Shown: positions 4,006 through 38,748, numbered from the stretch's first letter. The stretch: DNA of 64,000 nt from Bacteroidetes bacterium HGW-Bacteroidetes-5 (GCA_002842515.1 PHDC01000002.1:190744-254743); one strand, 5' to 3'. Numbers and translations are program-made. The notes: generated by a model from the letters alone, not told the origin.

Positions 4006-4040
4006 CCGCGAAGCGTAACACACCCGCGTAGCGGACCATA
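4006..4040 (+). repeat. GNA-triloop mini-hairpin pair
   Basis: CCGC-GAA-GCGT and CCGC-GTA-GCGG, same unit type as 17793, 26897 and 38255. Confidence 0.6.
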
Positions 4041-4058
4041 CACAAACTCCATTGGAGT

Positions 4059-4164
4059 AAAGTTATTTGCCGGTGCTTTTACGGTTATTTCCAGCTCATA
4101 GCTGCCGTCTCTGTATTGGGCCGGCAGCCGTGCTAGAATAACCTAAGCACCGGAATAACTTTCC
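4059..4164. repeat. Family-D imperfect palindromic element, copy 1
   Basis: AAAGTTATTTGCCGGTGCT...AGCACCGGAATAACTTT; near-identical copy at 4363-4472. Confidence 0.85.
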
Positions 4165-4177
4165 GGTTAGAAATGGA

Positions 4178-4349
4178 ACCTTGGCAAGGGTTGCGGACCC
4201 AATCCCGCAACGCGGTAAACACAACTGTGAAACGGACCATATGATCCCTGGGAGTTTTTTACTCTGTGCTGTTTTTCTTATGTTTAACATTTTTGGAAAA
4301 TCAAAAAAAGTAAACTCACCAAAGCTAAAATGCAAATATTCAAATCAAT
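4178..4349 (+). repeat. 172-bp direct repeat, copy 1
   Basis: Near-identical to 6151-6322; starts with a family-A variant ACCTTGGCAAGGGTTG. Confidence 0.9.
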
Positions 4350-4362
4350 GCAAATAGGAATA

Positions 4363-4472
4363 GGAAAGTTATTTGCCGGTGCTTTTTACGGTTATTTCCA
4401 GCTCATGGCTGCCTGGCTCTATGTTTGGCCGGCAGCCGCGCTAGAATAACCTAAGCACCGGAATAACTTTCC
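4363..4472. repeat. Family-D imperfect palindromic element, copy 2
   Basis: GGAAAGTTATTTGCCGGTGCT...AGCACCGGAATAACTTTCC. Confidence 0.85.
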
Positions 4473-4710
4473 TTGGCTTAACAAAAAATTTGATCAAAAA
4501 ATTGATAAATATTATTTCTTTTTATTTTTTTATTATATTTGATTTGTTGATTTACAATCATTTCAATTACTAAAAGCTTCTTAAATTCGCTCTAGTATTA
4601 ATATAATTAAACTAACCTTAATATTTTAATAAATTTAAGCTCTGTATATCTATGTATTACAATTATTTTAATATTATTTCATTAAATTAATCAACTTATA
4701 GGTTTATTTT

Positions 4711-5259
4711 ATGGAATTAATCACTATCTTTGCAGACATTTTATACACCGTGAAGTTCAATAAAAATGGAATTCACGAGTTTGCGAAGGTTTTTAACGAG
4801 TGGAGCGATCCTGAGGTGCTTTTTGATTTTTTTGAAGATAATAAGAGTGATCTAAATTCTGGTTTTTTCGGTAAAATAAGTGTAGAAGAAGCAGTTATGA
4901 TCACAATTGAAGAAGCTAAATACTTGGAAGACCTATTGATATTTTGCGGCAAAAATGGAGGCAAGACGGCTTTGGATATCTTTTTTAAACATGACTTGTA
5001 TGACTGGCCACAAATTAAAGAGTTGGTTCCAAAGAAAGGATATGGTAAACGTAAAAAATCTTGGCTTAGACTATATGCAATTGAGCTTTCAGAAGAGTGT
5101 TATGTTATAACTGGTGGAGCAATAAAGTTAACTCGAAAACTCAAGGAAAGACCACATACAAAAAAAGAGCTTAAGAAAATTGAAAAATTTATTGACTTTC
5201 TCAAAGAGAATGGTATTTATAACAATAAAGGCATAATAGAAACAATAGAATTACAATAA
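4711..5259 (+). CDS. Putative RelE/HigB-like toxin of a TAC triad
   Basis: C-terminal half SWLRLYAIEL..YVITGGAIKLT resembles RelE/Gp49-like ribonucleases; first gene before an XRE HTH and a SecB-like gene. Confidence 0.55.
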   Translation: MELITIFADILYTVKFNKNGIHEFAKVFNEWSDPEVLFDFFEDNKSDLNSGFFGKISVEEAVMITIEEAKYLEDLLIFCGKNGGKTALDIFFKHDLYDWPQIKELVPKKGYGKRKKSWLRLYAIELSEECYVITGGAIKLTRKLKERPHTKKELKKIEKFIDFLKENGIYNNKGIIETIELQ

Positions 5260-5260
5260 A

Positions 5261-5695
5261 ATGTTAGATCTTGATAAGCTCAACAAAATTTCTACTCCTG
5301 ATACAATATGGAGTAAAGATTCTGCCTTTAGGCAAGAGAACAGTGAATGGCTTCAAAAATCTGCGAAGATAGCGCTGATTGTCTTACGTGCATTAAAAGA
5401 TCAATCTATCAATCAAAAGGATCTTGCTGTATTAATGGGCGTTAAACCTCAACAAGTCAACAAAATTGTAAAGGGAAAAGAAAACCTTACTCTTGAGACT
5501 ATTTGTAAATTAGAAAAAGCACTTAATGTTAAAATTGTAGAAGTAAACATCCCTTTTACTAGAGAATTTATTGTTGAAGGCTACCAAACAAAAAGGCAGG
5601 AGTTCAAACATACATCCACTATTATTCCGTTCAAATACCCTAGTTACGATTTTGAGCTCACTGAATATGTTAGTGATTATAAAGACGCTGTTTAA
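5261..5695 (+). CDS. XRE-family HTH protein, putative HigA-like antitoxin with C-terminal extension
   Basis: INQKDLAVLMGVKPQQVNKIVKGKENLTLETICKLEKAL; aromatic-rich tail. Confidence 0.75.
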   Translation: MLDLDKLNKISTPDTIWSKDSAFRQENSEWLQKSAKIALIVLRALKDQSINQKDLAVLMGVKPQQVNKIVKGKENLTLETICKLEKALNVKIVEVNIPFTREFIVEGYQTKRQEFKHTSTIIPFKYPSYDFELTEYVSDYKDAV

Positions 5696-5709
5696 TTGGA
5701 CATCAAAAT

Positions 5710-6144
5710 ATGACAAAAAATAAAATTATTGGCTTTAGGTTGGCAAGCATCCGCACCAATGAATTCGCAACAGTTGAAGATGTTAATGCCGGCGAAGATA
5801 AAATTTCAATTAAAACGGGAGTAGGTGTAAGAATGAGTATTGAAAAATGCGTAATTTTTGTAGATACCAAATTCACATTCATTTATGACAATTGTCCGTT
5901 TATCATCCTGAACAGTGAATGTAGTTTTATTGTGGATGACAATCACTTCAAGTCATTCAAAAATGATTCCGATGACTCATATGTAATACCGAAAGACTTT
6001 ATTACACATCTAGCAGTCATAGCTGTTGGGACAGCTCGTGGAATACTCCACAGCAAAACAGAAAACACAGAATACAATAAATACTTACTACCCACAATAA
6101 ACCTCACTAAAATAATTAAAGAGGATTTGGTGGTAAAAAATTAG
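5710..6144 (+). CDS. SecB-like chaperone
   Basis: 144 aa; C-terminal HLAVIAVGTARGILHSKT..YLLPTINLTKII matches the SecB-fold LPxIN signature. Confidence 0.6.
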   Translation: MTKNKIIGFRLASIRTNEFATVEDVNAGEDKISIKTGVGVRMSIEKCVIFVDTKFTFIYDNCPFIILNSECSFIVDDNHFKSFKNDSDDSYVIPKDFITHLAVIAVGTARGILHSKTENTEYNKYLLPTINLTKIIKEDLVVKN

Positions 6145-6150
6145 AGGGAG

Positions 6151-6322
6151 ACCTTGGCAAGGGTTGTGGACCCAATCCCACAACGCGGTAAACACAACCG
6201 TGAAACGGACCATATGATCCCTAGGAGTTTTTTACTCTGTGCTGTTTTTCTTATGTTTAACATTTTTGGAAAATCAAAAAAAGTAAACTCACCAAAGCTA
6301 AAATGCAAATATTCAAATCAAT
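6151..6322 (+). repeat. 172-bp direct repeat, copy 2
   Basis: Near-identical to 4178-4349. Confidence 0.9.
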
Positions 6323-6467
6323 CCCGGCTCTATTGGATACAGTAATCAAATCCCACTTTGGATATTTGGCATGACTTATTGAGGAATGTTGGCAATTCTC
6401 CGCCGCAGGCGTAGACCGGCACCGCAGGTGCACCATTTTTACATATCCTCTAATGAGTCTTGGGAGA

Positions 6468-6505
6468 GAACCTTGCCAAGCATCGTGGGGCATCGCTGAT
6501 AATCA
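6468..6505 (+). repeat. Family-A element
   Basis: GAACCTTGCCAAGCATCGTGGGGCATCGCTGATAATCA; preceded by GCA-loop hairpins at about 6400-6432. Confidence 0.85.
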
Positions 6506-9502: not shown

Positions 9503-9583
9503 ACTCGAATTATTTCACACAAATATAATAATATTCTTTTATACTCGAACAATATTATAGACATCTCTTTTTTTGAGAGTTTT

Positions 9584-17081: not shown

Positions 17082-17094
17082 GATATATTATTTG

Positions 17095-17201: not shown

Positions 17202-17699
17202 ATGAGAGGGTTTATGAGAAAGCTTGTGAGAAAATTTGGAAGAAAACTTGTGAGAGTACTTGTTGGCAAGAGGTTGCCCAAAGGTTGCAAGGAGATAGAG
17301 AACTCCGTTGCATTCAAAATTGTTGAGGAGAGTCTTAATGAGGGTGTGCCGGTGAAGATGACCGTAAGAGGGGATAGTATGTTTCCAACTCTTGCCGGAG
17401 GTAAAGATCAAGTCACTCTTCACCCATTTACCGAGAAAGAGTCTCTCTCTGTTGGCGATGTGGTACTATTCAGATACAAAAAAGGGTATCTATTGCACAG
17501 AGTTATTGAGATACCTAATAGTGAATCAAAAATTCCCGGGGCAGACTCCCCCGTATATCTCAAAGGAGACGCACTCAACACAATCGAGATGGCAACCATA
17601 AGGGACATCCTGGCCATTGCCCACTTTAAACAACACTCCCCCACCTCCCTTTTTTGGAAAAGAACTGCCAGTGTTTTGAGAAAAGTGCTAATAATCTGA
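17202..17699 (+). CDS. S24/S26-family serine peptidase
   Basis: VRGDSMFPTL, GDVVLF, LLHRVI, LKGD; start uncertain (repeat-derived N-terminus); C-terminus read from a B2 element. Confidence 0.75.
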   Translation: MRGFMRKLVRKFGRKLVRVLVGKRLPKGCKEIENSVAFKIVEESLNEGVPVKMTVRGDSMFPTLAGGKDQVTLHPFTEKESLSVGDVVLFRYKKGYLLHRVIEIPNSESKIPGADSPVYLKGDALNTIEMATIRDILAIAHFKQHSPTSLFWKRTASVLRKVLII

Positions 17700-17784
17700 T
17701 ACTTAGAAATTCCGATTTTAATATTCTAATAGAATCCAAATTTTATATCATTGATAACCTGGCACTTACACAGAACACTGGCAG
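17665..17784. repeat. Family-B2 120-bp inverted-repeat element, diverged copy
   Basis: CTGCCAGTGTTTTG...AACACTGGCAG; same length as 26987-27106 and 38399-38518. Confidence 0.7.
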
Positions 17785-17792
17785 TTGAAATT

Positions 17793-17874
17793 CGCGCAGC
17801 AGACCACAGCCACCCGCGCAGCGGACAACACACCTGCGAAGCAGACCGCACACTGGCAAAGTTTGTTTTGTTTT
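17793..17874 (+). repeat. GNA mini-hairpin array ending in a lone B1-type arm
   Basis: CCGC-GCA-GCGG, CTGC-GAA-GCAG; CACTGGCAAAGTTT at 17861-17874. Confidence 0.7.
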
Positions 17875-26172: not shown

Positions 26173-26894
26173 TGACAAAATCAAAAGCAGGGAACTTGCA
26201 GATGGATAGCTCGCAGATGGAGAGTTCTAAGATAGATCGCTCGCATATGGGTTTGCAGATAAAAGATCTCAATAAGAGTTTTAACGGGATCACCCTCTTC
26301 AAGGATTTCAATCTCAGTTTGGCAGAGAGCACCATCACCTGCATTCTGGGCCCTTCGGGTTGCGGGAAGAGCACACTGCTCAACATTATCGGCAAAGTAA
26401 TTTTGCCCGACAGCGGCTCCCTCATTGGTTTCGATGATAAGATCTTCTCATATATTTTTCAGGAGCCGCGGCTGCTGCCCTGGAAAACGGTTCGAGGTAA
26501 TATCGAATTTGTGCTTGGCGGGAATATGTCGCCCTCTCAAAGAAGGAGTGAGGCAGATAGGCTCATTCATAAAGTTCAGTTAGAAGGTTTTGCCAACTAC
26601 TACCCCTCACAGTTGAGCGGCGGTATGCGCCAGCGTGTCTCAATTGCGCGCGCCTTCGCCTGCCACTCCGATATCATCCTGATGGACGAGCCGCTCAACG
26701 GACTGGATGCCTCCCTAAAACAGAATATGATAGAGTGGTTTTCCCAAATCTGGAAAGAGGACAGGCGCACCGTAATCTTCGTAACCCACAATGTAGACGA
26801 AGCCCAGCTACTCGGCGACGAAATCATCGTCCTAAGCAACCCACCCGTGCAAGTTGTGAAGAGAACCTTGCCAAGCATCGTGGGGCTTTCTTAA
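26172..26894 (+). CDS. NitT/TauT-family ABC ATP-binding protein
   Basis: GPSGCGKS, LSGGMRQR, LMDEP; TAATG coupling; tail TLPSIVGLS read from a family-A element. Confidence 0.9.
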   Translation: MTKSKAGNLQMDSSQMESSKIDRSHMGLQIKDLNKSFNGITLFKDFNLSLAESTITCILGPSGCGKSTLLNIIGKVILPDSGSLIGFDDKIFSYIFQEPRLLPWKTVRGNIEFVLGGNMSPSQRRSEADRLIHKVQLEGFANYYPSQLSGGMRQRVSIARAFACHSDIILMDEPLNGLDASLKQNMIEWFSQIWKEDRRTVIFVTHNVDEAQLLGDEIIVLSNPPVQVVKRTLPSIVGLS

Positions 26895-27460
26895 AACTGC
26901 GCAGCAGTAAACACAACCGCGCAGCGGACCGCAAATCCGTCTGTTATAGTTCCCCACATAACTTTTTATCCTCGGAGAATTTTCATCTGCCAGTGTTTTG
27001 TGTAAGTTGCTGTAGATTAATAGATTAATTTTTGTGTTTTTCTCAATTGCCAAAATCCCAATTTTTAAACACCTGAATACTAGCTTGTTTCACATAACAC
27101 TGCCAGTTGAATTTTCTACTATGCGGTTATGTGGTCCGTTTCACGGCTTGTGTTGTCCACTTCGTGGTTGTGTGGTCCGTTTCACGGATGTGTTGTCCAC
27201 TTCGTGGTTATGTGGTCCGTTTCACGGATGTGTTTTCCACTTCGTGGTTATGTAAAAAAAGCGCAGCCGTAAAACAGCTGCGCAAAATATCTCAGGGCTC
27301 TTGTGCCAAGACGCACATAATCAATTACTTAACCAAATTTTAATTTGCGTGTAAAACACTTAAACACAATGTTTTGGCACAAGAGCCCTGAGATGGATAC
27401 GGGCAAAGAACCCAGAGATGCGGGCAAAGAGCCCTGAGATGAAAACCTGAGATGAAAACC
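26863..27460. repeat. Composite repeat cluster: family A + GCA hairpins + B2 + GAA hairpin array + family C + short tandem units
   Basis: A 26863; GCA 26897-26934; B2 26987-27106; array 27124-27253; C 27289-27394; GGGCAAAGA(A/G)CCC(A/T)GAGAT units to about 27460. Confidence 0.85.
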
Positions 27461-27465
27461 CGCGA

Positions 27466-29016
27466 CTAATATGTCAACGAAGTGCTGGCGTGTCTGTAAA
27501 TTAGGTTTTTGGCCAGACCTGTTCCGTTATAAATTGTTTTTTCGGGAAGTATAACATCGGGAGTTGCTCCTTCGAGGTCATAAGTGCGTAAAACCCAGTT
27601 ACCGCCTTTGTTGGAGAGAACTACGAACGTATTAATCTTATAGTAGAAGTCGTAGGAGTGCTCGATGTATGTGATCTCTTCGCCGGCGGGCAGAGTGATT
27701 AGATCTCTCTTCTCTGTCTGGTTGGCCGGGTTGAAGTAGTGCACTTTGTTGTCTCCGGAAGAGTAGTATATGACAGTGTTGAATGCTGTGCTTGTGCCAC
27801 CCTTAAGAGCGAAAACTTTACCGGAGGTTACGCCTGCACTTGCAGGTATAACAAGCCCGCCGGCACCGTAGTCGTAGATGTAGCCGTATTGAATATTGCT
27901 AACGCCTATCTGCCATAGAGTGAACACATTGGTTGTTCTGTTTTTCACTATTACATAACTGCGGCCTGCAGATGTTGCATAGTAAACCTGTGTTCCCATA
28001 TAAATGAGGTCACTGTTTGTAAAGTATGCTTCGCCTACAGGGGCAAGTGTGAGTGGAGATGCTTTAACAACCGCATTTTTTACCGCTGAGTATGTTTGTG
28101 CGTGATAGCCGGCCAGTTCGCCTGCGTTATCGTCATAAACCATTACAGAACTTGACATTACGGTAGCGTTTGAGTTGAGTTTCATATTGTTCACAGGGTA
28201 TGGATAACCAAACTCGCCAACATTGGAGCCGTTGTTGTTTATAAACTGTACCGAGTTATTGTTCATCAGCATATATCCCATAGTGTTTGCCCAAACACCC
28301 TGAGGTTTTTTCACTGCCGGTTTCTCAAGAAATGCTTCATCCCAGGATTTCAGTAATTTCATACTTTCGCCGTGGTAGATTCTCATATCCTCGTCACTGC
28401 AAACCAACACTGCCGGTTTAAATGTCATTTTGGTTTTTGTTCCGTCTGCATTGACTACATAGTACGAAAATCTGTTTACTTCAAAGGTTGAGCGGATTGG
28501 CTTACCGGGAAGGTCATCGCCATTTATCTGCTTGAGGATGTTTTTGTTTATCAATCCGTTCCTGTCTACAAAATCTATATCTGTACGGCCGTTTTCATAT
28601 TTGTTTATGTAATACCCTATTCCAAAGATGCTCGAAACTGTGAGCAGGCTCTTTTTGTAAACAGATGTTTTGTTGATCTTGTCTGTGGCTTTGAAGATGA
28701 GCGTGTAGGTACCCGACAACAGTGTCACCGGATAGTCCAGCTTCTTTGTACGGCCAAGTGTGTCACAAGCAGTACCCACAACAAGTGCCGGATATGCATA
28801 CCAAACATAGTCGTAAAGGTTTTCATCTGCACCCATCGTAGGATCAATAACCAGCTTCTCCATAGAGATAGCAGAGTATGAGTCATTGATTCCGGAGACC
28901 AGAGTTGGCGCAACTTTATCTGCATCAAGGTATTCATAGTTGCCGGTGTCCTTGATACACCCAAATAGATATACTGTTAGTATAACTGCTAATATGTATT
29001 TTAATATTTGTTTCAT
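27466..29016 (-). CDS. PKD-like family lipoprotein of a SusC/D locus
   Basis: Lipobox FGC-IKDTGNYEY; position after DUF4843 gene. Confidence 0.7.
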   Translation of the reverse strand: MKQILKYILAVILTVYLFGCIKDTGNYEYLDADKVAPTLVSGINDSYSAISMEKLVIDPTMGADENLYDYVWYAYPALVVGTACDTLGRTKKLDYPVTLLSGTYTLIFKATDKINKTSVYKKSLLTVSSIFGIGYYINKYENGRTDIDFVDRNGLINKNILKQINGDDLPGKPIRSTFEVNRFSYYVVNADGTKTKMTFKPAVLVCSDEDMRIYHGESMKLLKSWDEAFLEKPAVKKPQGVWANTMGYMLMNNNSVQFINNNGSNVGEFGYPYPVNNMKLNSNATVMSSSVMVYDDNAGELAGYHAQTYSAVKNAVVKASPLTLAPVGEAYFTNSDLIYMGTQVYYATSAGRSYVIVKNRTTNVFTLWQIGVSNIQYGYIYDYGAGGLVIPASAGVTSGKVFALKGGTSTAFNTVIYYSSGDNKVHYFNPANQTEKRDLITLPAGEEITYIEHSYDFYYKINTFVVLSNKGGNWVLRTYDLEGATPDVILPEKTIYNGTGLAKNLIYRHASTSLTY

Positions 29017-29028
29017 CGTAGTTATGTA

Positions 29029-29787
29029 TTAAGGGAAAATAACTCTGGTAACTCCATCTGCCTCATAAAGAGGTCCGTTAGCCAGTTCATACTCGGCAAG
29101 TTTTGCTTTTGCCTTTAGAGCCAGATATACTCTGTAATCCGTAGTGAGAACTATATCAAAATCGCTGTACTCTACATAGTCAATTATGAACTTCATCTTA
29201 GCCTGACCCCAGGGGCCAAATATCGATAGGTAGCTGTTTGCCACATCCCAAAGAGCCGGTTTCACAGCCATTGCGGTGATTTTTACAGTGTAGTTTGTGC
29301 GATCTTTAATACCTGCCACAAAGAACTCGTTGGTTGTAATCTCCAGATCCAGCCTAAACTCAGATGTGGCCATCTCCGCAGTGCGTTTTACAATCACAGG
29401 AACGGATACAGAAACTTTGTTTGCAGGCAGAATCAGATATTTTGCAAATGCAGGATCGTTAAATGCCACATAGTGAGTACCTGCAACTGCAGATCCCGCC
29501 TCAGCAGTATTGGACTGAACAATCGGAAGGACTCTATCTTTAGCGGAAGGAACACCTGTCAATTGAACATCTACCCATACTGTATCTACAGTTACACTGC
29601 TCGCAGCAAGGAAGAAAGAGTATGAAACACTGTCTGTTTGAGGTGCCCCTTTGCTGTTGCCGGAGCCTCTGTAAAAGAATAGAGAACTCTCACCCTCAAA
29701 CCTGTTCACCACCTTCTCCTGGCACGATGAAACTCCCATCGCCAAAGCCAGGATTAAAAAACTATATTTTATTGCTTTTATCTTCAT
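29029..29787 (-). CDS. DUF4843-type lipoprotein
   Basis: Lipobox SSC; YSF..DTVWVDVQLTG..KPALWD..FGPWGQAK. Confidence 0.7.
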   Translation of the reverse strand: MKIKAIKYSFLILALAMGVSSCQEKVVNRFEGESSLFFYRGSGNSKGAPQTDSVSYSFFLAASSVTVDTVWVDVQLTGVPSAKDRVLPIVQSNTAEAGSAVAGTHYVAFNDPAFAKYLILPANKVSVSVPVIVKRTAEMATSEFRLDLEITTNEFFVAGIKDRTNYTVKITAMAVKPALWDVANSYLSIFGPWGQAKMKFIIDYVEYSDFDIVLTTDYRVYLALKAKAKLAEYELANGPLYEADGVTRVIFP

Positions 29788-29798
29788 AATTATAATGT

Positions 29799-31271
29799 TT
29801 ATTCGAACATTGATTGTGATTCCGGAATTGGCAGTTTATAGGCAGATTCGGTTACCACTTTGGCTACAGGCCAAGTGAACTTATTGTAATTGTGCCTTTT
29901 ATAGAAGAAGAACATCTGCCCCTCTCCGTAAAACTCTTTGCGGTACTCCTTCTCCAGTCTCTCCTTAATAGCTGTTGCAGATGTCAGGGTTCCGTCAATG
30001 GATGGATCTAAAACTCTGGCTATGCGATAGTCGCGGAAAAGCAGTTCGCTGCCACACTCTGTAGCTATAAAGTACATCTCTGCCAATCTTATGAGCGGGA
30101 TGTCTTTAACTGCGGTCTTACTGTCGGTGTCGTTGTACTTCTTGAAAAAGTTGAAGTTACCTGCCAAAGGAATAACTCTTAACTCCCATAGACGGTTGCT
30201 TCTGTAACGGATATCCGAAGTGTGCAGTGTAGATTCGAAAGCGGTGTTGAGATAGGTTGTAGTTTGGGTGTAGGCGGTGTTGTTGTTGAAAAATACAGAG
30301 GTGAGTGTCTGGGTAGAGAGCGTGTTGCTCACTGCGAAGATGTGCTCAGTTGGGAATGTAAGCTGCCCGTTGTTGGCTGCCGTTTCACTGCCCAGTGTAA
30401 ATTTCGCTGTTCCATCGCTGTTTTTTGCATTTATTACAGCCAAAGCATTTTCCAGTGCCTGTACATTATCTCCTCTCCATAGGTAGTAACGAGCCTTTGT
30501 GGCCTTCACTGCATAGTAATTGAACCTTACCTGACGGAAAAAGTGGTACTCATCTGCAGGATAAGGCTTTGTTTTATCTATTCCGGCTAGTGTAGACGGA
30601 GAGTTTAAAACTGCATTAGAGTAGGTAAGAATTGGATCTGCACTTAAAAGCTCTTCGGCCTGGTTTAGATCTGCCAAAATATTGTCCAAAACCTCCTGAT
30701 AGCTGTTGGCTATTAGTTTGTTCGGGTCTTTTGTAACAGTTTTTACATAAGGAATAGCTTTATTGGTAAGCACTATACTGCCCGGAACACTTCCCCAAAA
30801 ACGGAGAACCTCCAGGTGCAAAAAGGCACGTAAACCAAGCGCTTCTCCTTTGATAACCTCGTAGTTACCATTGGCAAACATATCTTTTTTCGAGTCGATA
30901 TCTTCCAGTATTGAATTGATATTCAATATTGTTTGATAATATTGAAGCCACACAGCCTCAAACATGTTTTTACTTGTGGTTTGGGTGTAGTCAAAGCTGC
31001 TCAAGTATGCAGATATTGTTCCTGTTACAGGTGTCCAGTGTTGGGAGATAAGTTCCGGCAGCACCATTGTGGTATTCAACCCATAAAGTGACGGGGTTGC
31101 CATTCTTATGTAGGATCCTATGAGTACATCTTTAAACCCCTGCTCATTCTCGAAAATGGCATTTTTGCGAATCTCCAGCTCGGGCTGAATATCGAGCCAC
31201 TTATTACACGAGGTAAGGGATAAAACTGCGATAAATATTATTAAATATATCCTTTTCATCTTCATTCTCAT
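29799..31271 (-). CDS. RagB/SusD-family lipoprotein
   Basis: SCNKWLDIQP, GEALGLRAFLHL, IPLIRLAEMYFI, EYRKEFYGEGQ. Confidence 0.9.
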   Translation of the reverse strand: MRMKMKRIYLIIFIAVLSLTSCNKWLDIQPELEIRKNAIFENEQGFKDVLIGSYIRMATPSLYGLNTTMVLPELISQHWTPVTGTISAYLSSFDYTQTTSKNMFEAVWLQYYQTILNINSILEDIDSKKDMFANGNYEVIKGEALGLRAFLHLEVLRFWGSVPGSIVLTNKAIPYVKTVTKDPNKLIANSYQEVLDNILADLNQAEELLSADPILTYSNAVLNSPSTLAGIDKTKPYPADEYHFFRQVRFNYYAVKATKARYYLWRGDNVQALENALAVINAKNSDGTAKFTLGSETAANNGQLTFPTEHIFAVSNTLSTQTLTSVFFNNNTAYTQTTTYLNTAFESTLHTSDIRYRSNRLWELRVIPLAGNFNFFKKYNDTDSKTAVKDIPLIRLAEMYFIATECGSELLFRDYRIARVLDPSIDGTLTSATAIKERLEKEYRKEFYGEGQMFFFYKRHNYNKFTWPVAKVVTESAYKLPIPESQSMFE

Positions 31272-31291
31272 TGATTAATTAGTAATTACCG

Positions 31292-34200
31292 TTAAAATCT
31301 TGCAGTTAACGAGAGAGAAAACTTCCGGGCAAACGGATAGTAAAGGCCCCTCTCCTGCTTTATGGTTGAGATGTAAAACAGATCTTCTGCATATAAACCA
31401 AGCGACAGGTAATCCATTTTCAGACTCTTTTTAAGCCACTCTGTACTGAATTCATAGTTGATATTCAATGAATTGAGGTTTATGGCATTCTCTTTCATAA
31501 CAAAACGTGACGAAGCGTAAGTGGCATTGAAGTCTCTTATGTTTTTGAAACTTGCAACATCACCCGGATTTTGCCAACGCTCATAAAGCGCTCTTTTATC
31601 CAGATTTCCCCACGGATTGTTTACCTGCCTTGAGAGACTGATGTTTTCTACTTTGTCCACAAGACTTTGGTTGTAGATGTAACCACCTACACGGTAAGAC
31701 ATTGTAGCGTTTAGTGTAATGTTTTTCCATCTGAATGTGGTTCTTAGGTTACCCCAGATCTTCGGCTCATTCACACCGCTCGGAACTTTGTCCTGTGCAT
31801 TCCAGGTGTAAACTCTCTCACCCAATCTGTTTAGGAAGAGCTCTTGCCCTGTTGCCGGGTCTATGCCAAGTGAGCGAACAACAAATATGGTGTTCATAGA
31901 TTGCCCCTCCTGATAAAGGAAACTTGGGTTTGGACCTGCATCTTTCATAAGCTCTGAGTTCAAAAACTCGAGTGCATTGGAGATTTTAAGAATCTTGTTC
32001 ACATTGTGAGCCATATTTCCTCCTATAGACCAGGTGATTCGCTTGTTCATATCACGAATCAGAAATACGTTTGCATCAACCTCTACTCCTCTGTTTCTCA
32101 CCTCTCCTATGTTTGCTTTATAGCTTTGGAAACCTCCCGCTGTAGGCAGATTTATATCTGTAAGCAGATCTTCGGTTAATTTGTTGTAGTAGTCTACATT
32201 CAAGCGGATGCGACCGTCAAAGAGTGAGGTCTCTACTCCAATGTTGGTGTGTTTGGTCTTCTGCCACGAGAGGTCGGGGTTACCGAGTCCAATCATATAG
32301 GCTCCGTTCCAGAATTTATAACTCTCCTGGCCAAAATATTTGTAAGTTGTGAGTGCCTGGTATGAGCTAAAGTTTTGAGAACCTGTCGTTCCGTAAGACA
32401 GGCGCAGACGCAGTGAGTTGATTGCACTCAGTTTGCTGATGAATTTTTCGTTGTGAACATTCCATCCAAACCCCGCCGACCAGAACGGTGCTGTACGGTC
32501 ATTGCTTCCGAATTTTGATGACCCCTCTATCTTGCCCGAGAAATCGGCAAAGTAGCGTCTGTCATAAGTGTAGTTAACATTGAGAATAGTTCCGATTCTT
32601 CTTGAATGTTGTTCACTGCTAAAAGGTTTGCCCAGTGAATAGGCTCCGGCCATTCCCAGGTTTTTCATATTTGATGCCGAGAATCCTCTGCCCTGAACTG
32701 AGTAGCTCTCGTTGAGATCTTCTGCAATGTTTGCGCTCAATCCTGAGTACAACTGGTGAACCTCATTGAATGTCTTCTTGTAGTTTAGGGTTGCAGATCC
32801 TTCGTAAGAGAACTGATAACCTGTTGTGTATGTGTAGCTTCCGCGCATATTGAAGTTCTCTCCGGTATAGTCACCTGTGTCAAAACTTGTGTGGTCGCGT
32901 GAAAGATATTTGTCTGTACGGCTCTGTTGGTTTGAAACTCCAAAATTACCTCTGAACATAAAGTCTTTGTTGATTTGCCACTCGACTGCAAAATTGTTCT
33001 GGATGCTGGTGTAGCTTCCGTCGTCGCGAGTTGGCAGGGTGGCATTGTATAGTGGGTTTCCCACTCTTTGCGGAGTGTTTGAAGATGCCGGAGGATCTGA
33101 GATCATCTTCTTAAGGTGACCTTCACTATCGTATGGTGTGTAGAGCGGATTTGCCGTAGTGTACTCAGAGAAATCGCCATATGGGGAGTTTCTGTTTCTG
33201 TTGTGCAGAATAGTGAGGTCGTTCTGGAATTTAAGGTTTTTCAATGTGTATTGGAAGAAGAGGTTACCCGAAAAGTTGTTGCGGGAAGACTCCTTCATTA
33301 CACCTAAAATGTTGTTGTAAGATATGCTACCTGCGTAGTTAAAGTTATCTGCACCACCATCTACCCTTACACTGTGTCTGTTACCCACTCCTGTTCTTAC
33401 AGGGTATTTTAGCCAGTAGGTGTCTACTCCTCTCTCAAGTTCAATTAAGCGCTGGTTGTATAGCTCCTGCAGATTTTGGTTGGTAGGATTGTAAATTGAG
33501 TTAAACAGGCCTGCAGCCTTCTCATACTGAAGCTTCTCGCTTGCATTCATAAGATTGTAAGAGGCAAAATCGGGGGCCTCAATACTGATACCGCCCCTGT
33601 AGCTCACTCTTAATCTGCCTGCTGCAGGTCTTTTGAGTGTTATAACCACAATTCCGTTTGCTCCTCGTGAGCCGTACATTGCAGTTGCGCTGGCATCCTT
33701 TAGAAGGGTGATGCTCTCTACAAGCTCTTCGTCCATATCCATTACCCTCTGTACCGACACTTCGAAACCGTCCATTATAAAGAGAGGCATATTGGCATTG
33801 CTCTGCACACTTGTCTGCTCCTGAAGGTTACGAACATTTACATCCATACTGGTGCGTCCGCGAATTGTGATATCGGGCATTTTATTTGGGTCAGATCCAA
33901 ACTCCAGATTATCTATTAAGTTGAAACTTGGGTCTATGTTTCTGATTGAGATTAGAATATTGCGATTGCCGGATGCTTTTAACTCTTTGTCGGAGATTGT
34001 TGTGAGCGCTCCTGTGTAGCTCTCTCTGGATTTGTTGAAGATACCCGTAACCACAACCTGGTTAATAGACATCTCATCATCTTCCAGACTCACTGTTACC
34101 GAGCTCTTCCCTGCGATACTCACATCACGACTCTTCTTTCCCATAAAGGATACCGTGAGAGTTGTCCTGCCGAAAGGTACATTTAACTCAAAGCTGCCAT

Positions 34201-34696
34201 CTTCATTTGTAACAACGCCAACTTGAGTTCCCTTAACCATAACGGCTGCTCCGGGCAGTGGTAGACCATCTGCTTCGGTAACAACTCCGGTAATTTTTAC
34301 CGGTTTTTGATCTGCAATGTTTTGTTGTGCCACCTTCTTCGGGCCTATGACCACAACATTCTCCTCAAGAGAGTATGTAAAGGCTTTGCCCTCAAGTACA
34401 AGATCCATCAGGCGTTTGATTGTGGCATTTGCCACATTTACGCTCACCTTGCCGATAGCTCGTGCGGTCTCTGTGCTGTACATAAAGGTGTAGTCTGTTT
34501 GCGATTCAACATCGCGAACAATCTCTTCAAACGAAATATTTTGCTTGTTGATGCTGATTTGCCGGGTGTTCTGCGCGTTTAGTTGAAGCGAAGTTAGTCC
34601 GGTTAAAAAGAGCATTGCAACAGTACAAAATAAATTTCTGGCAGTTAAGTGGGAATATTTACCCACTAAAGTACGCTTAATCCACTTTTTATTCAT
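31292..34696 (-). CDS. SusC/RagA TonB-dependent transporter with N-terminal STN extension
   Basis: PLFIMDGFEV, LKDASATAMYGSRGANGIVVIT, DLSWQKT; C-terminal F. Confidence 0.95.
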   Translation of the reverse strand: MNKKWIKRTLVGKYSHLTARNLFCTVAMLFLTGLTSLQLNAQNTRQISINKQNISFEEIVRDVESQTDYTFMYSTETARAIGKVSVNVANATIKRLMDLVLEGKAFTYSLEENVVVIGPKKVAQQNIADQKPVKITGVVTEADGLPLPGAAVMVKGTQVGVVTNEDGSFELNVPFGRTTLTVSFMGKKSRDVSIAGKSSVTVSLEDDEMSINQVVVTGIFNKSRESYTGALTTISDKELKASGNRNILISIRNIDPSFNLIDNLEFGSDPNKMPDITIRGRTSMDVNVRNLQEQTSVQSNANMPLFIMDGFEVSVQRVMDMDEELVESITLLKDASATAMYGSRGANGIVVITLKRPAAGRLRVSYRGGISIEAPDFASYNLMNASEKLQYEKAAGLFNSIYNPTNQNLQELYNQRLIELERGVDTYWLKYPVRTGVGNRHSVRVDGGADNFNYAGSISYNNILGVMKESSRNNFSGNLFFQYTLKNLKFQNDLTILHNRNRNSPYGDFSEYTTANPLYTPYDSEGHLKKMISDPPASSNTPQRVGNPLYNATLPTRDDGSYTSIQNNFAVEWQINKDFMFRGNFGVSNQQSRTDKYLSRDHTSFDTGDYTGENFNMRGSYTYTTGYQFSYEGSATLNYKKTFNEVHQLYSGLSANIAEDLNESYSVQGRGFSASNMKNLGMAGAYSLGKPFSSEQHSRRIGTILNVNYTYDRRYFADFSGKIEGSSKFGSNDRTAPFWSAGFGWNVHNEKFISKLSAINSLRLRLSYGTTGSQNFSSYQALTTYKYFGQESYKFWNGAYMIGLGNPDLSWQKTKHTNIGVETSLFDGRIRLNVDYYNKLTEDLLTDINLPTAGGFQSYKANIGEVRNRGVEVDANVFLIRDMNKRITWSIGGNMAHNVNKILKISNALEFLNSELMKDAGPNPSFLYQEGQSMNTIFVVRSLGIDPATGQELFLNRLGERVYTWNAQDKVPSGVNEPKIWGNLRTTFRWKNITLNATMSYRVGGYIYNQSLVDKVENISLSRQVNNPWGNLDKRALYERWQNPGDVASFKNIRDFNATYASSRFVMKENAINLNSLNINYEFSTEWLKKSLKMDYLSLGLYAEDLFYISTIKQERGLYYPFARKFSLSLTARF

Positions 34697-34781
34697 ACAT
34701 TTAATGTTTGGGTTAGATGGGTTCTAAAACTGTTTTCTTTGCTGGAGCCGGTTTGAGGAAAAGAACCCGTTATATCCTCTA

Positions 34782-34837
34782 ACCGCTCATTTAACCGAAG
34801 TTCCTGGCCGAAAATCGGTTAAGTGGGTGGTTTTTTT
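34782..34837 (+). terminator. 17-bp hairpin plus T7 in the fecR-susC spacer, terminator polarity antisense to the operon
   Basis: ACCGCTCATTTAACCGA / TCGGTTAAGTGGGTGGT pair fully with G-U wobble on the plus strand, followed by TTTTTTT. Confidence 0.55.
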
Positions 34838-34848
34838 ATGGAGAGTTG

Positions 34849-36090
34849 CTATCTCCCCGGTAAGATTGTTACTTTTTTATCTGAAACATCAAACCGAAGC
34901 TCGCCTGTCTTCTCCATAAGATTCATCAGACGATTGAAGCTATCTGTACGAGGTAGTTTAAACCTGAATTTTTTATCTTTTAGGGCACTATCTTCATAGC
35001 TATATTCAAACCCGAACCAAAGGCTAAACTCCCTCATTATCTCATCCAGGCTTCTGTTATCGAATATAAACATTCCGTTGGCCCTCTCGCTATATATGGA
35101 GGCCTCCAGATTCTCTACTGAAATCTGCGAATTTGCACGATTAAAGATGGCCATCTGGTTCGGAACCAGCTCTGTGCTGTTCATCAGCACCTTACCGGAA
35201 ACCAGAACAGTCTCTATTGTGGGCTCATTACTATATGCCCTTATGTTAAAGCTTGTACCAAGCACAACCACAGATGCCCCGCCGGCATTAATATTAAATG
35301 GTCGCCCGCTATCTTTTTGCACATCAAAATAACCCTCCCCTACCAGTGTCACTGAGCGCTCCGTAGAGCCGAAAAACGAAGGAAACTGAAGCTCAGACTC
35401 CGGATAAAGAATAACTTTCGTACCATCTTCCAGAGTGATAGTGTGTGTAGACCCGCTGGAAACCTTTATTTTATAAATCTCCGCAACAGCCTTTTCCACC
35501 TCTCCCTTATCTGCAACTAAAGCCTGATTGCCAAGAATGCTCTTTATATCTGTCTTCTCCTTGAGCACTACACTCTCCCCCGTCGGAAACTCCAGCACCG
35601 TCTCATTTGCAAGCAGCGTAATAGTCTCCTTCGAATTAACATACCCCGAACGCAACCAATAACCCCCCACCGAAAGCGATGCAACCACCGCAAAAATTGC
35701 CGCATACCTCATCAACCCCCTCCCAAAACCAAACCCGGCACGCCTTGAACGCCCAAAACTTACCTCCGAACGCCCTAAACTCACTTCCGATTGCCCTAAA
35801 CTTACTTCCGAATCTCCCACTCTTAACTCCCTTTGGGAGATATTTCTCTCTACAACCGCCCAAACCTTTTTCCCAGCCTCAATTTCCGTCGCATCTGCAA
35901 CCGTAGAAGCATCTGCAACTTCAAAACTTTTTGCTACTTCGGTGGTGACCTTTTTGAGAATTTCATCTACATTCAAACCGTTCTCCTTTGCCAGTGAAGC
36001 GAGCTCTCGCCTCTCCTCATCCGAGATGGTTTTCAGTGCCAGTTTTGCTATCAGCCGGGCAACTCTCGTGGAGTCGTAATATCTTCTCAT
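34849..36090 (-). CDS. FecR-family anti-sigma factor
   Basis: TM segment RYAAIFAVV; LEDGTKVILYPESEL.FP..F..ER.V.LVGEGYFDV; VLGTSFN. Confidence 0.9.
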   Translation of the reverse strand: MRRYYDSTRVARLIAKLALKTISDEERRELASLAKENGLNVDEILKKVTTEVAKSFEVADASTVADATEIEAGKKVWAVVERNISQRELRVGDSEVSLGQSEVSLGRSEVSFGRSRRAGFGFGRGLMRYAAIFAVVASLSVGGYWLRSGYVNSKETITLLANETVLEFPTGESVVLKEKTDIKSILGNQALVADKGEVEKAVAEIYKIKVSSGSTHTITLEDGTKVILYPESELQFPSFFGSTERSVTLVGEGYFDVQKDSGRPFNINAGGASVVVLGTSFNIRAYSNEPTIETVLVSGKVLMNSTELVPNQMAIFNRANSQISVENLEASIYSERANGMFIFDNRSLDEIMREFSLWFGFEYSYEDSALKDKKFRFKLPRTDSFNRLMNLMEKTGELRFDVSDKKVTILPGR

Positions 36091-36239
36091 AGCTTTATAT
36101 TTTCGTTTATAGTATACAATTTCTAAATCTTAATTTCTAAAACTTGATTGAGATCAGCAATATCTGTTGAAAAGCCTTCAATCTATATATTAATCCACAA
36201 ATCGGCAAAAGGTATTACTTTGTCAAAAAAATATTTTTA

Positions 36240-36327
36240 TTGGAGATGATTAATTGATCAATTGATTTATTGGTTGGAGATGATTAATTGATCAATTGAT
36301 TTATTGGTTGAAGATGATTAATTGATC
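36240..36327. repeat. 34-bp tandem repeat (2.6 copies) with AATTGATCAATT palindrome in a divergent promoter region
   Basis: TTGGAGATGATTAATTGATCAATTGATTTATTGG at 36240 and 36274, partial at 36308. Confidence 0.85.
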
Positions 36328-36455
36328 TTTTGGTTGAAGATATCTTTTGTGAAAAACCCAAATTTTTGCGCAAAAATATGATGTTATAATAAAAAGTCTA
36401 ATTTTGTGAGTGAAATTATTAATGTGAAATCTACAATTTTATACACTCTCTCGCT

Positions 36456-36995
36456 ATGGAGGAGTTAGTACTGAGGTTTAGAGAGGGAGATGAACGCTCT
36501 TTTGAAAAATTGTTCTGGGCTTTCTTCCCTGCCGGGCGTCGTTTTGTTAAGGGCTTCCTTATTGATGATGATGCGGCAGAGGATATTCTTCAGGAGGTGT
36601 TTATCCAGATGTGGAACAAACGAGAGAGCTTCAACAGCGAATCGCATTTCAAGGCATATTTTTATAAATCTCTGAGAAACAACAGTGTAAAACGCATTGT
36701 GCGTAGCAAACACCCGCTCAATCTTGATGAAATTGGTAACAAAGAGAGTGAAGATCTTTTCGCAAGAATTACCGAAATAGAGCTCAACCGCGAGATTATG
36801 CGTGCCGTCTCACAACTTCCGCAAAAACGCCGGCAAATTATTCTTCTCTCCATCTCCGGAATGAGTTCAGAACAGATTGCCGACGCTCTCAATATTTCGA
36901 TTAATACAGTCAAAAGTCAAAAAACTAAAGCTTACAGCTCCCTTCGTCAAGAGCTTAAAGATATCAGCAGCTTTATGCTCCTGCTTTGCCTCTAA
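36456..36995 (+). CDS. ECF RNA polymerase sigma-70 factor
   Basis: AEDILQEVFIQMW; region 4 LPQKRRQIILL..IADALNISINTVKSQK. Confidence 0.9.
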   Translation: MEELVLRFREGDERSFEKLFWAFFPAGRRFVKGFLIDDDAAEDILQEVFIQMWNKRESFNSESHFKAYFYKSLRNNSVKRIVRSKHPLNLDEIGNKESEDLFARITEIELNREIMRAVSQLPQKRRQIILLSISGMSSEQIADALNISINTVKSQKTKAYSSLRQELKDISSFMLLLCL

Positions 36996-37037
36996 CTAAG
37001 TTTTCTACCTACTATTGCTACTTATAGTGCTACTTTA

Positions 37038-37106
37038 GCAACACCGGTTGCGTTACTTTTGCAATACCGGTTGCGTTACTTTTGCAATACCGGTTGCGTT
37101 ACTTTT
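37038..37106. repeat. 23-bp tandem triplication overlapping the thioredoxin gene stop
   Basis: GCAA(C/T)ACCGGTTGCGTTACTTTT x3. Confidence 0.9.
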
Positions 37107-38158
37107 AAATGTTTTTCAAGCGCTTTCGTTGCACTCTCAATAACTTTATCGTTTTTCACAAGTGCAATAATTTCTTCTGTTTGCTGCTTAGTCCACAAAT
37201 CTAATAATGAAGGTATTGCAAAGTATAAAAATCTATCCATCTCATTACTCTCAATCTTCGGGGCAACCTCTTTAATTAAACTAAACAGGGAGTTGGCACC
37301 CTCTTTAGAGATGTAGGTTTTAACGGCAGCTTGATAAACAGGTAAGATTTTATCATTTTTAAGATTCAGCAAAGCTAGTTGTCTGTTCTTCTCTTCAAAA
37401 TCTGCAAAATTTGGTACTCTCTGTTTTCCGATGATGCCGGCATAGTAGGCCTCATATTTCTTTTTCATTACCAGATCTATCTTGTCGCGACCAACTTTAG
37501 TGCGAAATTTTTCGAGATTATCTGTCAGGAATTTTCCTCTTGCAGATTCTAATCTGGCATAGTCATCGTAAAGAAACATACACTCTTCGCAAATCCTCTC
37601 ATCTTCTGTTAGCGAGCTCTCAAATTGGTTTATCAACTCAGTTACATCTGCAGTATAGGTAGCTTGCAAAGCCATTATATAGCTGGCAACCAATTTCTTA
37701 TCCCTCTCACCCGAGTTGTAACGCTTTTGTAATGTTCCGAATGCTTTCTCGGGATTAAATGACTCCTCAATCTTGTCGATAAAGGCCAACCCTAATACTC
37801 CACCTGCAAACATATGGAGCAATTTCCCGTCTCCATCAAGAATTACGAATGTCGGATAGGCTTTTATTCCAAATTTTTCTTTTACAGCCGGTCCTTCAAC
37901 TCCCTTTTCTGCATTTAATTTCAAGCTAATGAATTTTGGATTAAAATAATCTCCCATCTCTTTCATCGGATAGATCTCTTTATCCATCATTTTGCACGGG
38001 CCGCACCAATCTGTGTAGCTGTCTATAAACACAAATTTGTTTTCGGCTTTTGCTTTTGCAATTGCCTCATTTAAAGTTAACTCCTGGAAATTAATACCTT
38101 GAGCCCCTGCCCCCACCGATATGAACACGACGAATAGCATCAAAAAGAATCTTTTCAT
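37076..38158 (-). CDS. Exported thioredoxin-family protein
   Basis: Signal peptide; FIDSYTDWCGPCKMM. Confidence 0.85.
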   Translation of the reverse strand: MKRFFLMLFVVFISVGAGAQGINFQELTLNEAIAKAKAENKFVFIDSYTDWCGPCKMMDKEIYPMKEMGDYFNPKFISLKLNAEKGVEGPAVKEKFGIKAYPTFVILDGDGKLLHMFAGGVLGLAFIDKIEESFNPEKAFGTLQKRYNSGERDKKLVASYIMALQATYTADVTELINQFESSLTEDERICEECMFLYDDYARLESARGKFLTDNLEKFRTKVGRDKIDLVMKKKYEAYYAGIIGKQRVPNFADFEEKNRQLALLNLKNDKILPVYQAAVKTYISKEGANSLFSLIKEVAPKIESNEMDRFLYFAIPSLLDLWTKQQTEEIIALVKNDKVIESATKALEKHLKVTQPVLQK

Positions 38159-38232
38159 TTTTATTATTTAATTAATGATTTCACCTATTAATATCCAGCA
38201 AATGCCAAAAGGTGTTACCACCCAGAGATAAT

Positions 38233-38748
38233 ATCTCAAAGCTCTGAGATGAAACTGCGCAGCAGACCGCAAACCTGCGCAGCAGAAAACACAACCGCGC
38301 AGCGGACCGCAAAACTGCGCAGCAGTAAACACAACCGCGCAGCGGACCGCAAACCTGCGCAGCAGTAAACACAACCGCGCAGCGGACCGCATTTTCATCT
38401 GCCAGTGTTTTGTGTAAGTTACTGTAGATTAATAGATTAATTTTTGTGTTTTTCTCAATTGCCAGAATCCCAATTTTTAAACACCTGTAAACCAGTCTGT
38501 TTCACATAACACTGCCAGTTGAATTTTCCGCTGTGTTGTCCACTTCGTGGTTATGTGGTCCGTTTCACGGCCTGTGTTGTCCACTTCGTGGTTATGTAAA
38601 AAAAGCGCAGCAGAAAAAAAAACTTTGCCAGTGTTTGATGTAAGGCATTGTTAATCTTGTAATTGCAAAAGGCAGTTTTCCAAATATGGAAAACTGGGAT
38701 TTACAATCTATTGACCTCCATTATATTTCATCAAACTCTGGCAAAGTT
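38233..38748. repeat. Composite repeat cluster: C-remnant + GCA hairpin array + B2 + GAA array + B1
   Basis: ATCTCA..TGAGAT 38233-38250; array 38255-38390; 38391-38528 near-identical to 26979-27116; array 38530-38597; B1 38621-38748. Confidence 0.85.

Follow-up and report, generated by a model that had tools for sequence, protein, structure and literature searches.

REP and BIME repeats (PMC3116915, PMC3733652, PMC3479197) are short extragenic palindromic units in lineage-specific families, which cluster with other conserved motifs after gene 3' ends and between convergent or tandem genes. The hairpin arrays described here resembled them in each of these respects, and RAYT-like genes flanked by related repeat families were present in the same genome. 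The GTAG or CGTC tag of REPs (PMC3733652) was however absent from the units, in which the columns flanking the stem were A/C-rich and variable (110 units), and the stem was 4 bp with a fixed 3-nt loop compared with published stems of 5-13 bp (GTAG) or 8-9 bp (CGTC) (PMC3733652). REPs also alternate in orientation while the units here ran head-to-tail along a single strand at intervals of exactly 20 nt, were limited to about 50 per genome and did not flank any RAYT-like gene. TIRYT genes and TIRtrons (Di Nocera et al. 2013, PMC3733652) are RAYT-like genes within long inverted repeats that themselves form moderately abundant families. The likeness in this case concerned the neighbours of the arrays rather than the hairpin units, as the elements B1, B2 and family C were doublets of 105-140 bp with inverted ends of 22-30 nt, family C bracketed one RAYT-like gene and a B2-like copy abutted another; mobilisation by RAYT-like enzymes is putative.

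The BrickBuilt MITE of Porphyromonas gingivalis (Klein et al. 2015, PMC4596501) is likewise found in Bacteroidales, is always intergenic, varies in repeat number between strains and combines a minisatellite with segments bearing inverted repeats. Its 23-nt repeat is internal, flanked by a leader and a tail, and has no reported hairpin rule, whereas the 20-nt arrays were located beyond the inverted ends of B2 and B1 and also occurred without them. Homology to BrickBuilt was ruled out by this difference in architecture and by the lack of sequence similarity. Almost every unit was built around the d(GCGNAGC) mini-hairpin (Hirao and colleagues; PMC13037366, PMC3201870), a motif regarded as a physico-chemical curiosity and known as single copies from phage origins, ssiA and N4 promoters; no description of genomic tandem arrays of it was found in the searchable literature. 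IS200/IS605 elements, and derivatives of them that lack genes, end in small hairpins that a Y1 HUH enzyme reads on one strand, as might also apply to the units, and their activity is tied to the lagging-strand template (PMC6006769). They carry one imperfect hairpin per end on the same strand instead of phased arrays, and no IS200/IS605 element with hairpins of the unit type was found.

The window, a stretch of 64,000 nucleotides from Bacteroidetes bacterium HGW-Bacteroidetes-5 (GCA_002842515.1, PHDC01000002.1:190744-254743), contained about 30 units, each exactly 20 nt long and arranged in tandem arrays of 2-7. Each unit consisted of an 11-nt hairpin (4-bp GC-rich stem and G-N-A loop) followed by a 9-nt A/C-rich linker, and two unit types in alternation produced a 40-nt super-period. 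Mini-hairpin arrays had been noted in a first-pass annotation with a periodicity of about 20 nt; every site listed there was present and the spacing was exactly 20 nt. The hairpin features and the neighbouring elements were as follows.

4006-4035, plus strand: hairpin dyad of 2 units, the first two bases short
4203-4243, plus strand: degenerate dyad, loop AAC followed by a unit with a T-G wobble
6183-6213, plus strand: degenerate dyad within copy 2 of a 172-bp direct repeat
6401-6431, plus strand: atypical pair of GCA-loop hairpins 19 nt apart, linker not A/C-rich
17793-17844, plus strand: array of 3 units, the first truncated
26866-26889, plus strand: copy of a 3'-end motif (53 in the genome) that supplies the last codons of an ABC-transporter gene
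26897-26927, plus strand: cluster A left dyad, 2 units
26980-27125, plus strand: B2 copy A, doublet of about 140 bp with inverted ends of about 30 nt
27116-27247, minus strand: cluster A right array, 7 units, of which 6 intact (two alternating stem types) and 1 degenerate
27261-27283, minus strand: terminator-like hairpin, 10 pairs and a T7 run, between a minus-strand gene and the minus-strand array
27289-27395, unstranded: family-C doublet with 22-nt inverted arms; other copies of this family flank a RAYT-like gene in the genome
38255-38385, plus strand: cluster B left array, 7 units with two stem types in alternation
38392-38530, plus strand: B2 copy B, 95% identical to copy A
38540-38591, minus strand: cluster B right array, 3 units
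38620-38750, unstranded: B1, a doublet of 125 bp whose inverted ends measure 24 nt, with a terminator-like palindrome at its centre

Family membership of the hairpins at 6401-6431 was doubtful. The degenerate dyad at 4203-4243 sat in copy 1 of the 172-bp direct repeat and was followed by a B4-type end. A two-unit pattern that did not require complementarity matched 14 times in the window compared with 0 times in 100 dinucleotide shuffles, and the same pattern reversed as a control gave 0 matches in 52 genomes of the genus and 1 match in 401 genomes of the order. The host genome carried about 18 arrays and about 50 units in total, all intergenic, which is at the low end of the copy numbers of published REP families. 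No tRNA genes were found in the window.

The analysis of stem covariation covered 110 distinct units, drawn from metagenomes and five related genomes. Watson-Crick pairs occupied 97.7% of stem positions, compared with 16-27% when the partner was slid by -2, -1, +1, +2 or +3 and 67% after a slide of -3, the latter via an alternative GCGC register. The observed pairing was matched by none of 2000 shuffles, and 181 of 190 units were fully paired. Four stem types were identified that differed by compensated changes only, and the left and right arrays of one element, about 65% alike, had six stem differences that made up three compensated pairs. The first loop position was G (94%) or A (6%), the second was C, A, T or G and the third was A. 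In a metagenome scan that left the first unit wholly free, 40 of the 41 related matches were paired with a G-N-A loop. The earlier observation that stems covary while the loop stays G-N-A was therefore borne out in the larger set of units, and the pairing pattern supports a hairpin under constraint.

The closing pair was mostly C-G, and the exact GC-GNA-GC core was present in the two commonest stem types while two variant stems retained part of it. Among GCNNNGC fragments the mini-hairpin is formed by G-N-A loops only (PMC13037366), and the DNA form is very stable while its RNA counterpart is much weaker (PMC13037366, PMC3201870). The features conserved in the units are those that these experiments found to be needed for a very stable DNA mini-hairpin, so it appears reasonable that the hairpins would be read in single-stranded DNA. 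Nearest-neighbour folding of DNA favoured pairing between units over local hairpins in the GCA-type array and was uninformative as a test of local hairpins in such arrays, as the model contains no bonus term for the G-N-A loop.

We consider it somewhat better than an even chance that the arrays are mini-hairpin minisatellite modules of a selfish intergenic mosaic comparable to enterobacterial REP/BIME clusters, amplified by hairpin-driven slippage and used as junctions for the doublets. The 20-nt non-coding module would be a DNA mini-hairpin of the GCGNAGC type with an A/C-rich linker, tandemly repeated in the manner of a minisatellite. The mosaic is restricted to a small subclade within a genus of uncultured groundwater Bacteroidales, and its other blocks are the doublets B1, B2 and family C, a B4-type element and the abundant motif at gene 3' ends. 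B1, B2 and family C resemble the TIR or REPIN elements that partner RAYT-like HUH tyrosine transposases, and may be such elements. The strand with G-N-A usually coincides with the coding strand of the gene upstream, and wherever it becomes single-stranded, as in a transcription bubble or when it is the lagging-strand template, each of its units would fold into a very stable mini-hairpin. Hairpin formation could then drive slippage and unequal exchange, with arrays growing and shrinking by steps of 20 or 40 nt, and stems would stay paired if amplification were limited to hairpin-competent variants. The hairpin site may also be a preferred junction or landing place for the adjoining doublets, possibly via a HUH enzyme acting on single-stranded DNA. 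If such hairpins do form in DNA, this would be a natural use, as a genomic repeat unit, of an ultra-stable mini-hairpin otherwise regarded as an in-vitro curiosity. The arrays also offer a test bed for how hairpin stability drives the expansion of bacterial repeats.

Array length varied between genomes, with 8, 7 and 2 units at one orthologous locus, and the cluster arrays had 7 units compared with 4 in the sister species at each of two arrays. Such differences between strains would also be expected of a neutral hairpin minisatellite, in which the units are slippage products that have no reader and are under no selection, and the stems are kept by template-switch (quasipalindrome-correcting) mutation that alters both arms at once. 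Perfect hairpins are known to arise and persist through template switching (PMC8794818, PMC7202029), and the few compensated stem types were each amplified by duplication and so reflect few independent events. Similar 20-nt arrays with the same hairpin and unrelated linkers in Verrucomicrobiota and Polyangiaceae genomes suggest a general mutational route. Template switching does not, however, explain why G and A are fixed in the loop while the middle base drifts, why strand polarity follows the upstream genes, or why the A/C-rich linker is fixed and the arrays are placed repeatedly within a few bases of element ends. We regard the neutral origin as unlikely; were it correct, the arrays would be useful only as hypervariable strain markers.

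In 16 of the 18 arrays of this genome, and at about 12 of 16 independent loci in relatives, G-N-A lay on the same strand as the coding sequence of the adjacent upstream gene. The arrays were intergenic and downstream of co-oriented genes, and divergent spacers, which hold promoters only, were avoided. The first-pass annotation had linked strand polarity to GC skew; the match to positive GC skew was weak (12 of 16, in a draft genome) and the direction of the upstream gene was the clearer predictor. Several arrays came straight after a 3'-end motif that overlapped stop codons. This placement is what would be expected of an RNA-level element in 3' untranslated regions, where the hairpins block 3' exonucleases or act as a sponge for an RNA-binding protein. 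Against this, the terminator-like hairpin of cluster A stood between the minus-strand gene and its array, and the corresponding minus array in the sister genome was not downstream of any minus-strand gene. Stem intermediates of the G-U type were no commoner than C-A mismatches. No window match was obtained with Rfam 15 (including Acido-Lenti-1) at the gathering score and nothing credible was found over either cluster at E <= 1, and identity with a known RNA family was rejected on this basis. An RNA-level role is in our estimation quite unlikely.

Both B2 copies in the window carried a plus-strand array on the left and a minus-strand array on the right, in agreement with the opposite-strand layout first described, and the orthologue in the sister species had the same arrangement. 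The layout did not hold elsewhere. Roughly half of about 26 B2 copies surveyed in four genomes were without an array, left-end arrays occurred in both orientations, and symmetry about B2 was therefore ruled out as a general arrangement. The array at 17793-17844 had a B2-like copy in reverse orientation (17663-17790) on one side and the remnant of a B1 end on the other, and its G-N-A pointed outward from B2, the reverse of the two main copies. Right-end arrays, where present, always had one orientation, and this uniformity together with the inverted arrays within 5-17 nt of the B2 ends in both window copies and the orthologue would fit subterminal transposase-binding repeats of a composite B2 transposon, read as duplex and inverted at the ends as in Tn7 or Mu. 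Arrays were however also found without B2 beside B1, family C or B4, and were gained, lost and resized independently of B2, while the covarying stems favour structure over base-specific recognition of duplex DNA. The subterminal-repeat reading of the arrays around B2 was largely refuted, and we consider it extremely improbable.

In line with the proposed mosaic of interchangeable modules, units were joined to B1, B2, family C, B4 and the 3'-end motif, and the order of these modules was variable. The canonical dyad was a recurrent connector, located 3-15 nt from the ends of B1, B2, family-C and B4 elements at many loci in four genomes. At a single site, three species carried either B1, a dyad with B2, or a dyad with a B2-like element; at another orthologous locus B2 and B1 were present without an array; and a B1 located beside a dyad in this genome was missing from the same site in a sister genome. 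About 18 full copies of B1 were present in the genome. B1 ends as those of a full-length insertion sequence were also considered, and no such element was found in this genome.

HUH enzymes had been suggested as readers of the hairpins, and three RAYT-like HUH transposase genes were present in the genome. None had hairpin units within 300 nt, so that the search for a RAYT or IS200-like gene flanked by arrays, as had been proposed, returned no example. Their flanks held instead family C, or B1 and B2-like elements. One gene lay between two family-C doublets, in this genome as in a sister genome, and close orthologues of this type were found only in G005 (93% identity), G066 and G002. Another, in four genomes, adjoined a tRNA gene and had a B2-like doublet, or the remnant of one, directly 3'. 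This flanking matches the published pattern in which RAYT and TIRYT genes are flanked by their own repeats (PMC3733652, PMC3116915). RAYT-like genes were near-universal in the genus (47 of 52 genomes) and arrays were rare (5 of 52), so no phyletic link was apparent and no specific enzyme was tied to the arrays. The system is a tractable test bed for which enzyme, if any, moves REP-like elements outside Proteobacteria.

The array family was absent from 400 other genomes drawn from the order. Within the genus it was confined to genomes carrying B1 (5 of 7 with B1 compared with 0 of 45 without), and the co-occurrence of arrays with B1 and B2 is confounded by the shared ancestry of the five genomes. 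A DNA structure useful to the host, in which mini-hairpins every two helical turns exclude SSB, attract primase or polymerase, or bind gyrase or nucleoid proteins, is opposed by the rarity of the arrays in the genus and the order, by a copy number and position that differ between close strains, by the total of only about 18 arrays per genome and by the lack of any unit k-mer with Chi-like strand skew. The exact 20-nt phasing and the weak bias to the strand of positive GC skew are consistent with such a function, gyrase or nucleoid-protein binding has been proposed for BIMEs, and mini-hairpins of the d(GCGNAGC) type bind SSB poorly and are present at primase and N4 polymerase start sites (PMC13037366). 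A host function was nevertheless judged very unlikely. A Chi-like recombination signal was rejected, as no 6- to 8-mer of the units was more than 64% on the leading strand.

A loop-free scan for four units in 185,579 species genomes returned mostly unrelated 20-nt tandem repeats of high-GC bacteria, and the relevant matches were those in Bacteroidales and two look-alikes. Given the versions with unrelated linkers in Verrucomicrobiota and Polyangiaceae, it is conceivable, although we regard it as unlikely, that phased d(GCGNAGC) arrays constitute a recurrent, undescribed class of prokaryotic repeat that provides strand-specific signals in single-stranded DNA, either as a landing or processing site for HUH-mobilised doublets or in replication or priming. 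The dyad pattern had 0 matches in 2.9 million viral contigs, and a phage origin was rejected. The arrays mark sites of gene and repeat-module swapping between close species, and an 11-kb SusC/D polysaccharide-utilisation block located between the two clusters in the window was missing from the sister species.

Arrays of hairpin units were found at each of the sites listed in the first-pass annotation, including one atypical pair. The units are exactly 20 nt long. An 11-nt hairpin, with a GC-rich stem of 4 bp closing a 3-nt loop, precedes a 9-nt linker that is nearly all A and C on the strand carrying the G-N-A loop. Tandem Repeats Finder returned periods of 20 and 40 nt, the longer one because two unit types alternate. 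Approximately 18 arrays of 2 to 8 units are spread across the genome (G000), a 2.82-Mb draft of five contigs at 41% GC in which the window occupies C2:190744-254743. SusC/D-type loci are present in the window, and records of relatives in the same genus are labelled groundwater or uncultured Bacteroidales. The divergent units in the window were:

4203-4243, degenerate dyad (two units) inside a 172-bp direct repeat
6183-6213, degenerate dyad inside a 172-bp direct repeat
6401-6431, atypical hairpin pair with 19-nt spacing and a differing linker

A two-unit pattern with the stems fixed only as purine/pyrimidine classes was used for counting and gave 14 matches in the window compared to none in 100 shuffles. 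The reversed two-unit pattern served as a control and gave no matches in the 52 genomes of the genus and one in 401 genomes of the order.

In total, 190 units were gathered from 66 distinct arrays of G000, four sister species, one Paludibacteraceae genome and 34 metagenome contigs, and full Watson-Crick pairing was present in 181 of them. When 110 distinct units were compared, pairing was seen in 97.7% of the stem cells, as against 16-27% when the stem partners were slid by -2, -1, +1, +2 or +3, while a slide of -3 left 67% paired via an alternative GCGC register. The observed pairing was reached in none of 2000 column shuffles. The stems fall into four paired types, with compensated changes at pairs 2-10, 3-9 and 4-8 separating them. 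Within one cluster, left-array and right-array dyads (40 nt) were only ~65% alike, with all six stem differences amounting to three compensated pairs. Since the units share descent, few independent events are represented, at least three compensated changes. The first loop base was G (94%) or A (6%), the second was any base and the third was A, as set by the collecting pattern. When one unit was left wholly free in a metagenome scan, the stem was paired and the loop was G-N-A in 40 of the 41 related matches. The earlier claim that the stems covary while the loop stays G-N-A was upheld. Template-switch mutation can keep hairpin stems perfect with no selection needed (PMC8794818), but it leaves the loop rule, the linker and the strand polarity of the arrays unexplained.

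At their core the two most frequent units have GCGNAGC, the mini-hairpin DNA motif. Of all 64 GCNNNGC fragments, solely those with G-N-A loops formed the mini-hairpin, and GCGNAGC DNA melts at ~76 C, withstands 3' exonuclease and is poorly bound by SSB, while the RNA counterpart of a related 8-mer melts at 39 C (PMC13037366). Mini-hairpin stability also relies on a C-G closing pair (PMC3201870). The units follow this rule, with G and A fixed, the middle base free and the closing pair mostly C-G, and T-G wobble intermediates were not commoner than C-A mismatches. On these sequence grounds we lean towards a structure formed at the DNA level, to which the loop rule and the lack of an excess of wobbles over C-A mismatches point without proving it. 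A nearest-neighbour DNA model, which has no G-N-A term, recovered local hairpins for the GAA-type array and preferred between-unit pairing for the GCA-type array.

A BLAST of the two array-B2-array clusters of the window, cluster A (near 26897-27247) and cluster B (near 38255-38591), against the genome revealed a dispersed repeat family. The modules included a B4-type element and the following:

B2, doublet of ~140 bp with inverted ends of ~30 nt, ~10 copies in G000 and 4-16 in three sister genomes
B1, 125-bp doublet, inverted ends of 24 nt, terminator-like palindrome in the centre, ~18 full copies
Family C, 107-bp doublet (seen at window 27289-27395), ~10 copies
3'-end motif, 19 nt (e.g. window 26866-26889, 6471-6489 and 3774-3792), 53 copies genome-wide

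The ends of B1 and B2 have a common core. The B1 palindrome at window 38620-38750 is flanked by T runs on both strands in the manner of a bidirectional terminator, and three contig ends of the assembly fall within B1 copies. Copies of the 3'-end motif, which marks at least 53 genes, are nearly all sense-oriented, lie immediately after or overlap stop codons and are usually followed by a hairpin with a 9-bp stem; convergent gene pairs bear the motif on both strands. The first 12 bases of the motif presumably resemble the anticodon arm of tRNA-Gly(GCC). A canonical dyad recurred at numerous loci of four genomes, placed 3-15 nt from the ends of B1, B2, family C, the B4-type element and the 3'-end motif.

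The best-supported reading of the arrays is a REP/BIME-like mosaic with a DNA mini-hairpin minisatellite as its palindromic unit. Hairpins arising on an exposed strand would make the arrays expand and contract, and doublet elements nearby could use the hairpin site as a junction. The units differ from those of the REP super-families in their tag, their stem length and the absence of a flanked RAYT (REP-associated tyrosine transposase) gene, and for these reasons the element would be classed outside the described REP families, although it resembles REP/BIME in its working.

Unit number varied between close genomes. At one locus G000 has 8 units, several metagenome contigs have 7 and a further contig has 2; each of the two large cluster arrays numbers 7 units in G000 versus 4 in the sister genome G009. 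A B1 copy located 5 nt past a dyad in G000 is precisely missing in G009, and a clean present/absent polymorphism of B1 between sister species was found at G000:C2:109297-109425 (compared with sequence L090). One intergenic site holds B1 in G000, a dyad and B2 in G009, and a dyad and a B2-like element in a third genome, G043. Upstream of cluster A lies an ABC-transporter gene (window 26248-26894, compared with L075:1-720) whose end in G000 and G009 is formed by the 3'-end motif; in G043 the gene is ~30 codons longer, the extension is unrelated sequence, the motif is missing and another module set lies behind the gene. With the longer G043 gene lacking the motif, the motif and dyad appear to have taken the place of the original 3' end of the gene in G000 and G009.

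An 11-kb SusC/D block (window 27254-38254) with family-C-like sequence at its edges separates the two duplicated B2-plus-array clusters in G000. The block is missing at the orthologous site of G009 (L032:3600-4100), where the modules of clusters A and B are adjacent. Duplicated arrays enclose an inserted segment at G000:C1:840500-842700 as well. There, a B2 copy and a 428-aa minus-strand gene have an array of 8 units on one side and one of 4 units on the other, and the same B4-type element comes after both arrays. Just upstream of the gene at 39107 is an A-rich tandem repeat with an 11-nt unit and ~16 copies (window 38911-39084), which also occurs, in shorter form, in the G009 orthologue.

The arrays had been described as lying on opposite strands either side of B2. 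This layout was seen at both window copies, which are paralogues with 95% identity, and at the orthologous cluster of G009, but was not general over ~26 distinct B2 copies, roughly half of which have no array. Arrays at the right end of B2 had one constant orientation and those at the left end had both, with the loops reading outward from B2 at window 17793 and C1:842480. At one orthologous locus B2 stands alone in G043 versus B2, an array and B1 in G000 and G009. The direction of the upstream gene was a better predictor of array strand than the B2 layout. In 16 of the 18 G000 arrays the G-N-A strand has the sense of the nearest upstream gene, and among relatives rough ORF calls gave the same at ~12 of 16 independent loci. 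Spacers between divergent genes are largely avoided, as only two of the 18 arrays sit behind an opposite-strand gene; both are second copies of duplicated arrays. Cluster A is flanked by convergent genes and its two arrays are therefore on opposite strands. The proposed match to skew polarity was partial, with 12 of 16 arrays fitting the cumulative GC skew of the draft assembly; the four discordant arrays agree with gene direction, and the sample is too small to part the two effects. An RNA role is suggested by the orientation of the arrays in gene sense, but a strong terminator-like hairpin separates the gene from the array in cluster A, and the G009 arrangement and the DNA-type loop rule also weaken this view.

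Three Y1-HUH proteins of 260-320 aa are encoded in G000, each with REP-associated tyrosine transposase as its best NCBIfam match, under the equivalog cut-off. RAYT-like genes were present, but no hairpin unit was located within 300 nt of any of the three. One of them (G000:C1:1991576-1992604; L057/L095) has family-C doublets on both sides, as does its 93% orthologue in sister genome G005 (L096) in an identical layout, by analogy a Bacteroidales counterpart of REPIN/RAYT or TIRtron organisation. A second (G000:C1:1380517-1381600; L059/L060; also L062, L063 and L065) is next to a tRNA gene. At or just past the stop codon of this second RAYT-like gene a B2-like doublet or right-end remnant begins, and on the 5' side there is B1 or an end fragment. 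These flanks are common to four genomes at one syntenic locus, although the protein of G000 is only ~54% identical to those of the other genomes. B1/B2-like flanks were absent from homologues in genomes without B1 or B2. RAYT or TIRYT genes are flanked by their own repeat families (PMC3733652; PMC3116915), a pattern that the family-C and B2-like/B1 flanks fit. RAYT-like genes were found in 47 of the 52 genomes of the genus and therefore no particular enzyme is tied to the arrays.

Of the 52 genomes of the genus, five have arrays; a sample of 400 further genomes covering 148 families of the order had none, and nor did any viral contig searched. B2 was found in four of the five array-bearing genomes and B1 in all five and two more. 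In one Paludibacteraceae genome there is an array of 8 units whose A/C-rich linker differs. The same GCA-loop hairpin occurs in 20-nt tandem arrays with unrelated linkers in a Verrucomicrobiota MAG (L045) and a Polyangiaceae MAG (L048), and the former array adjoins other short tandem repeats.
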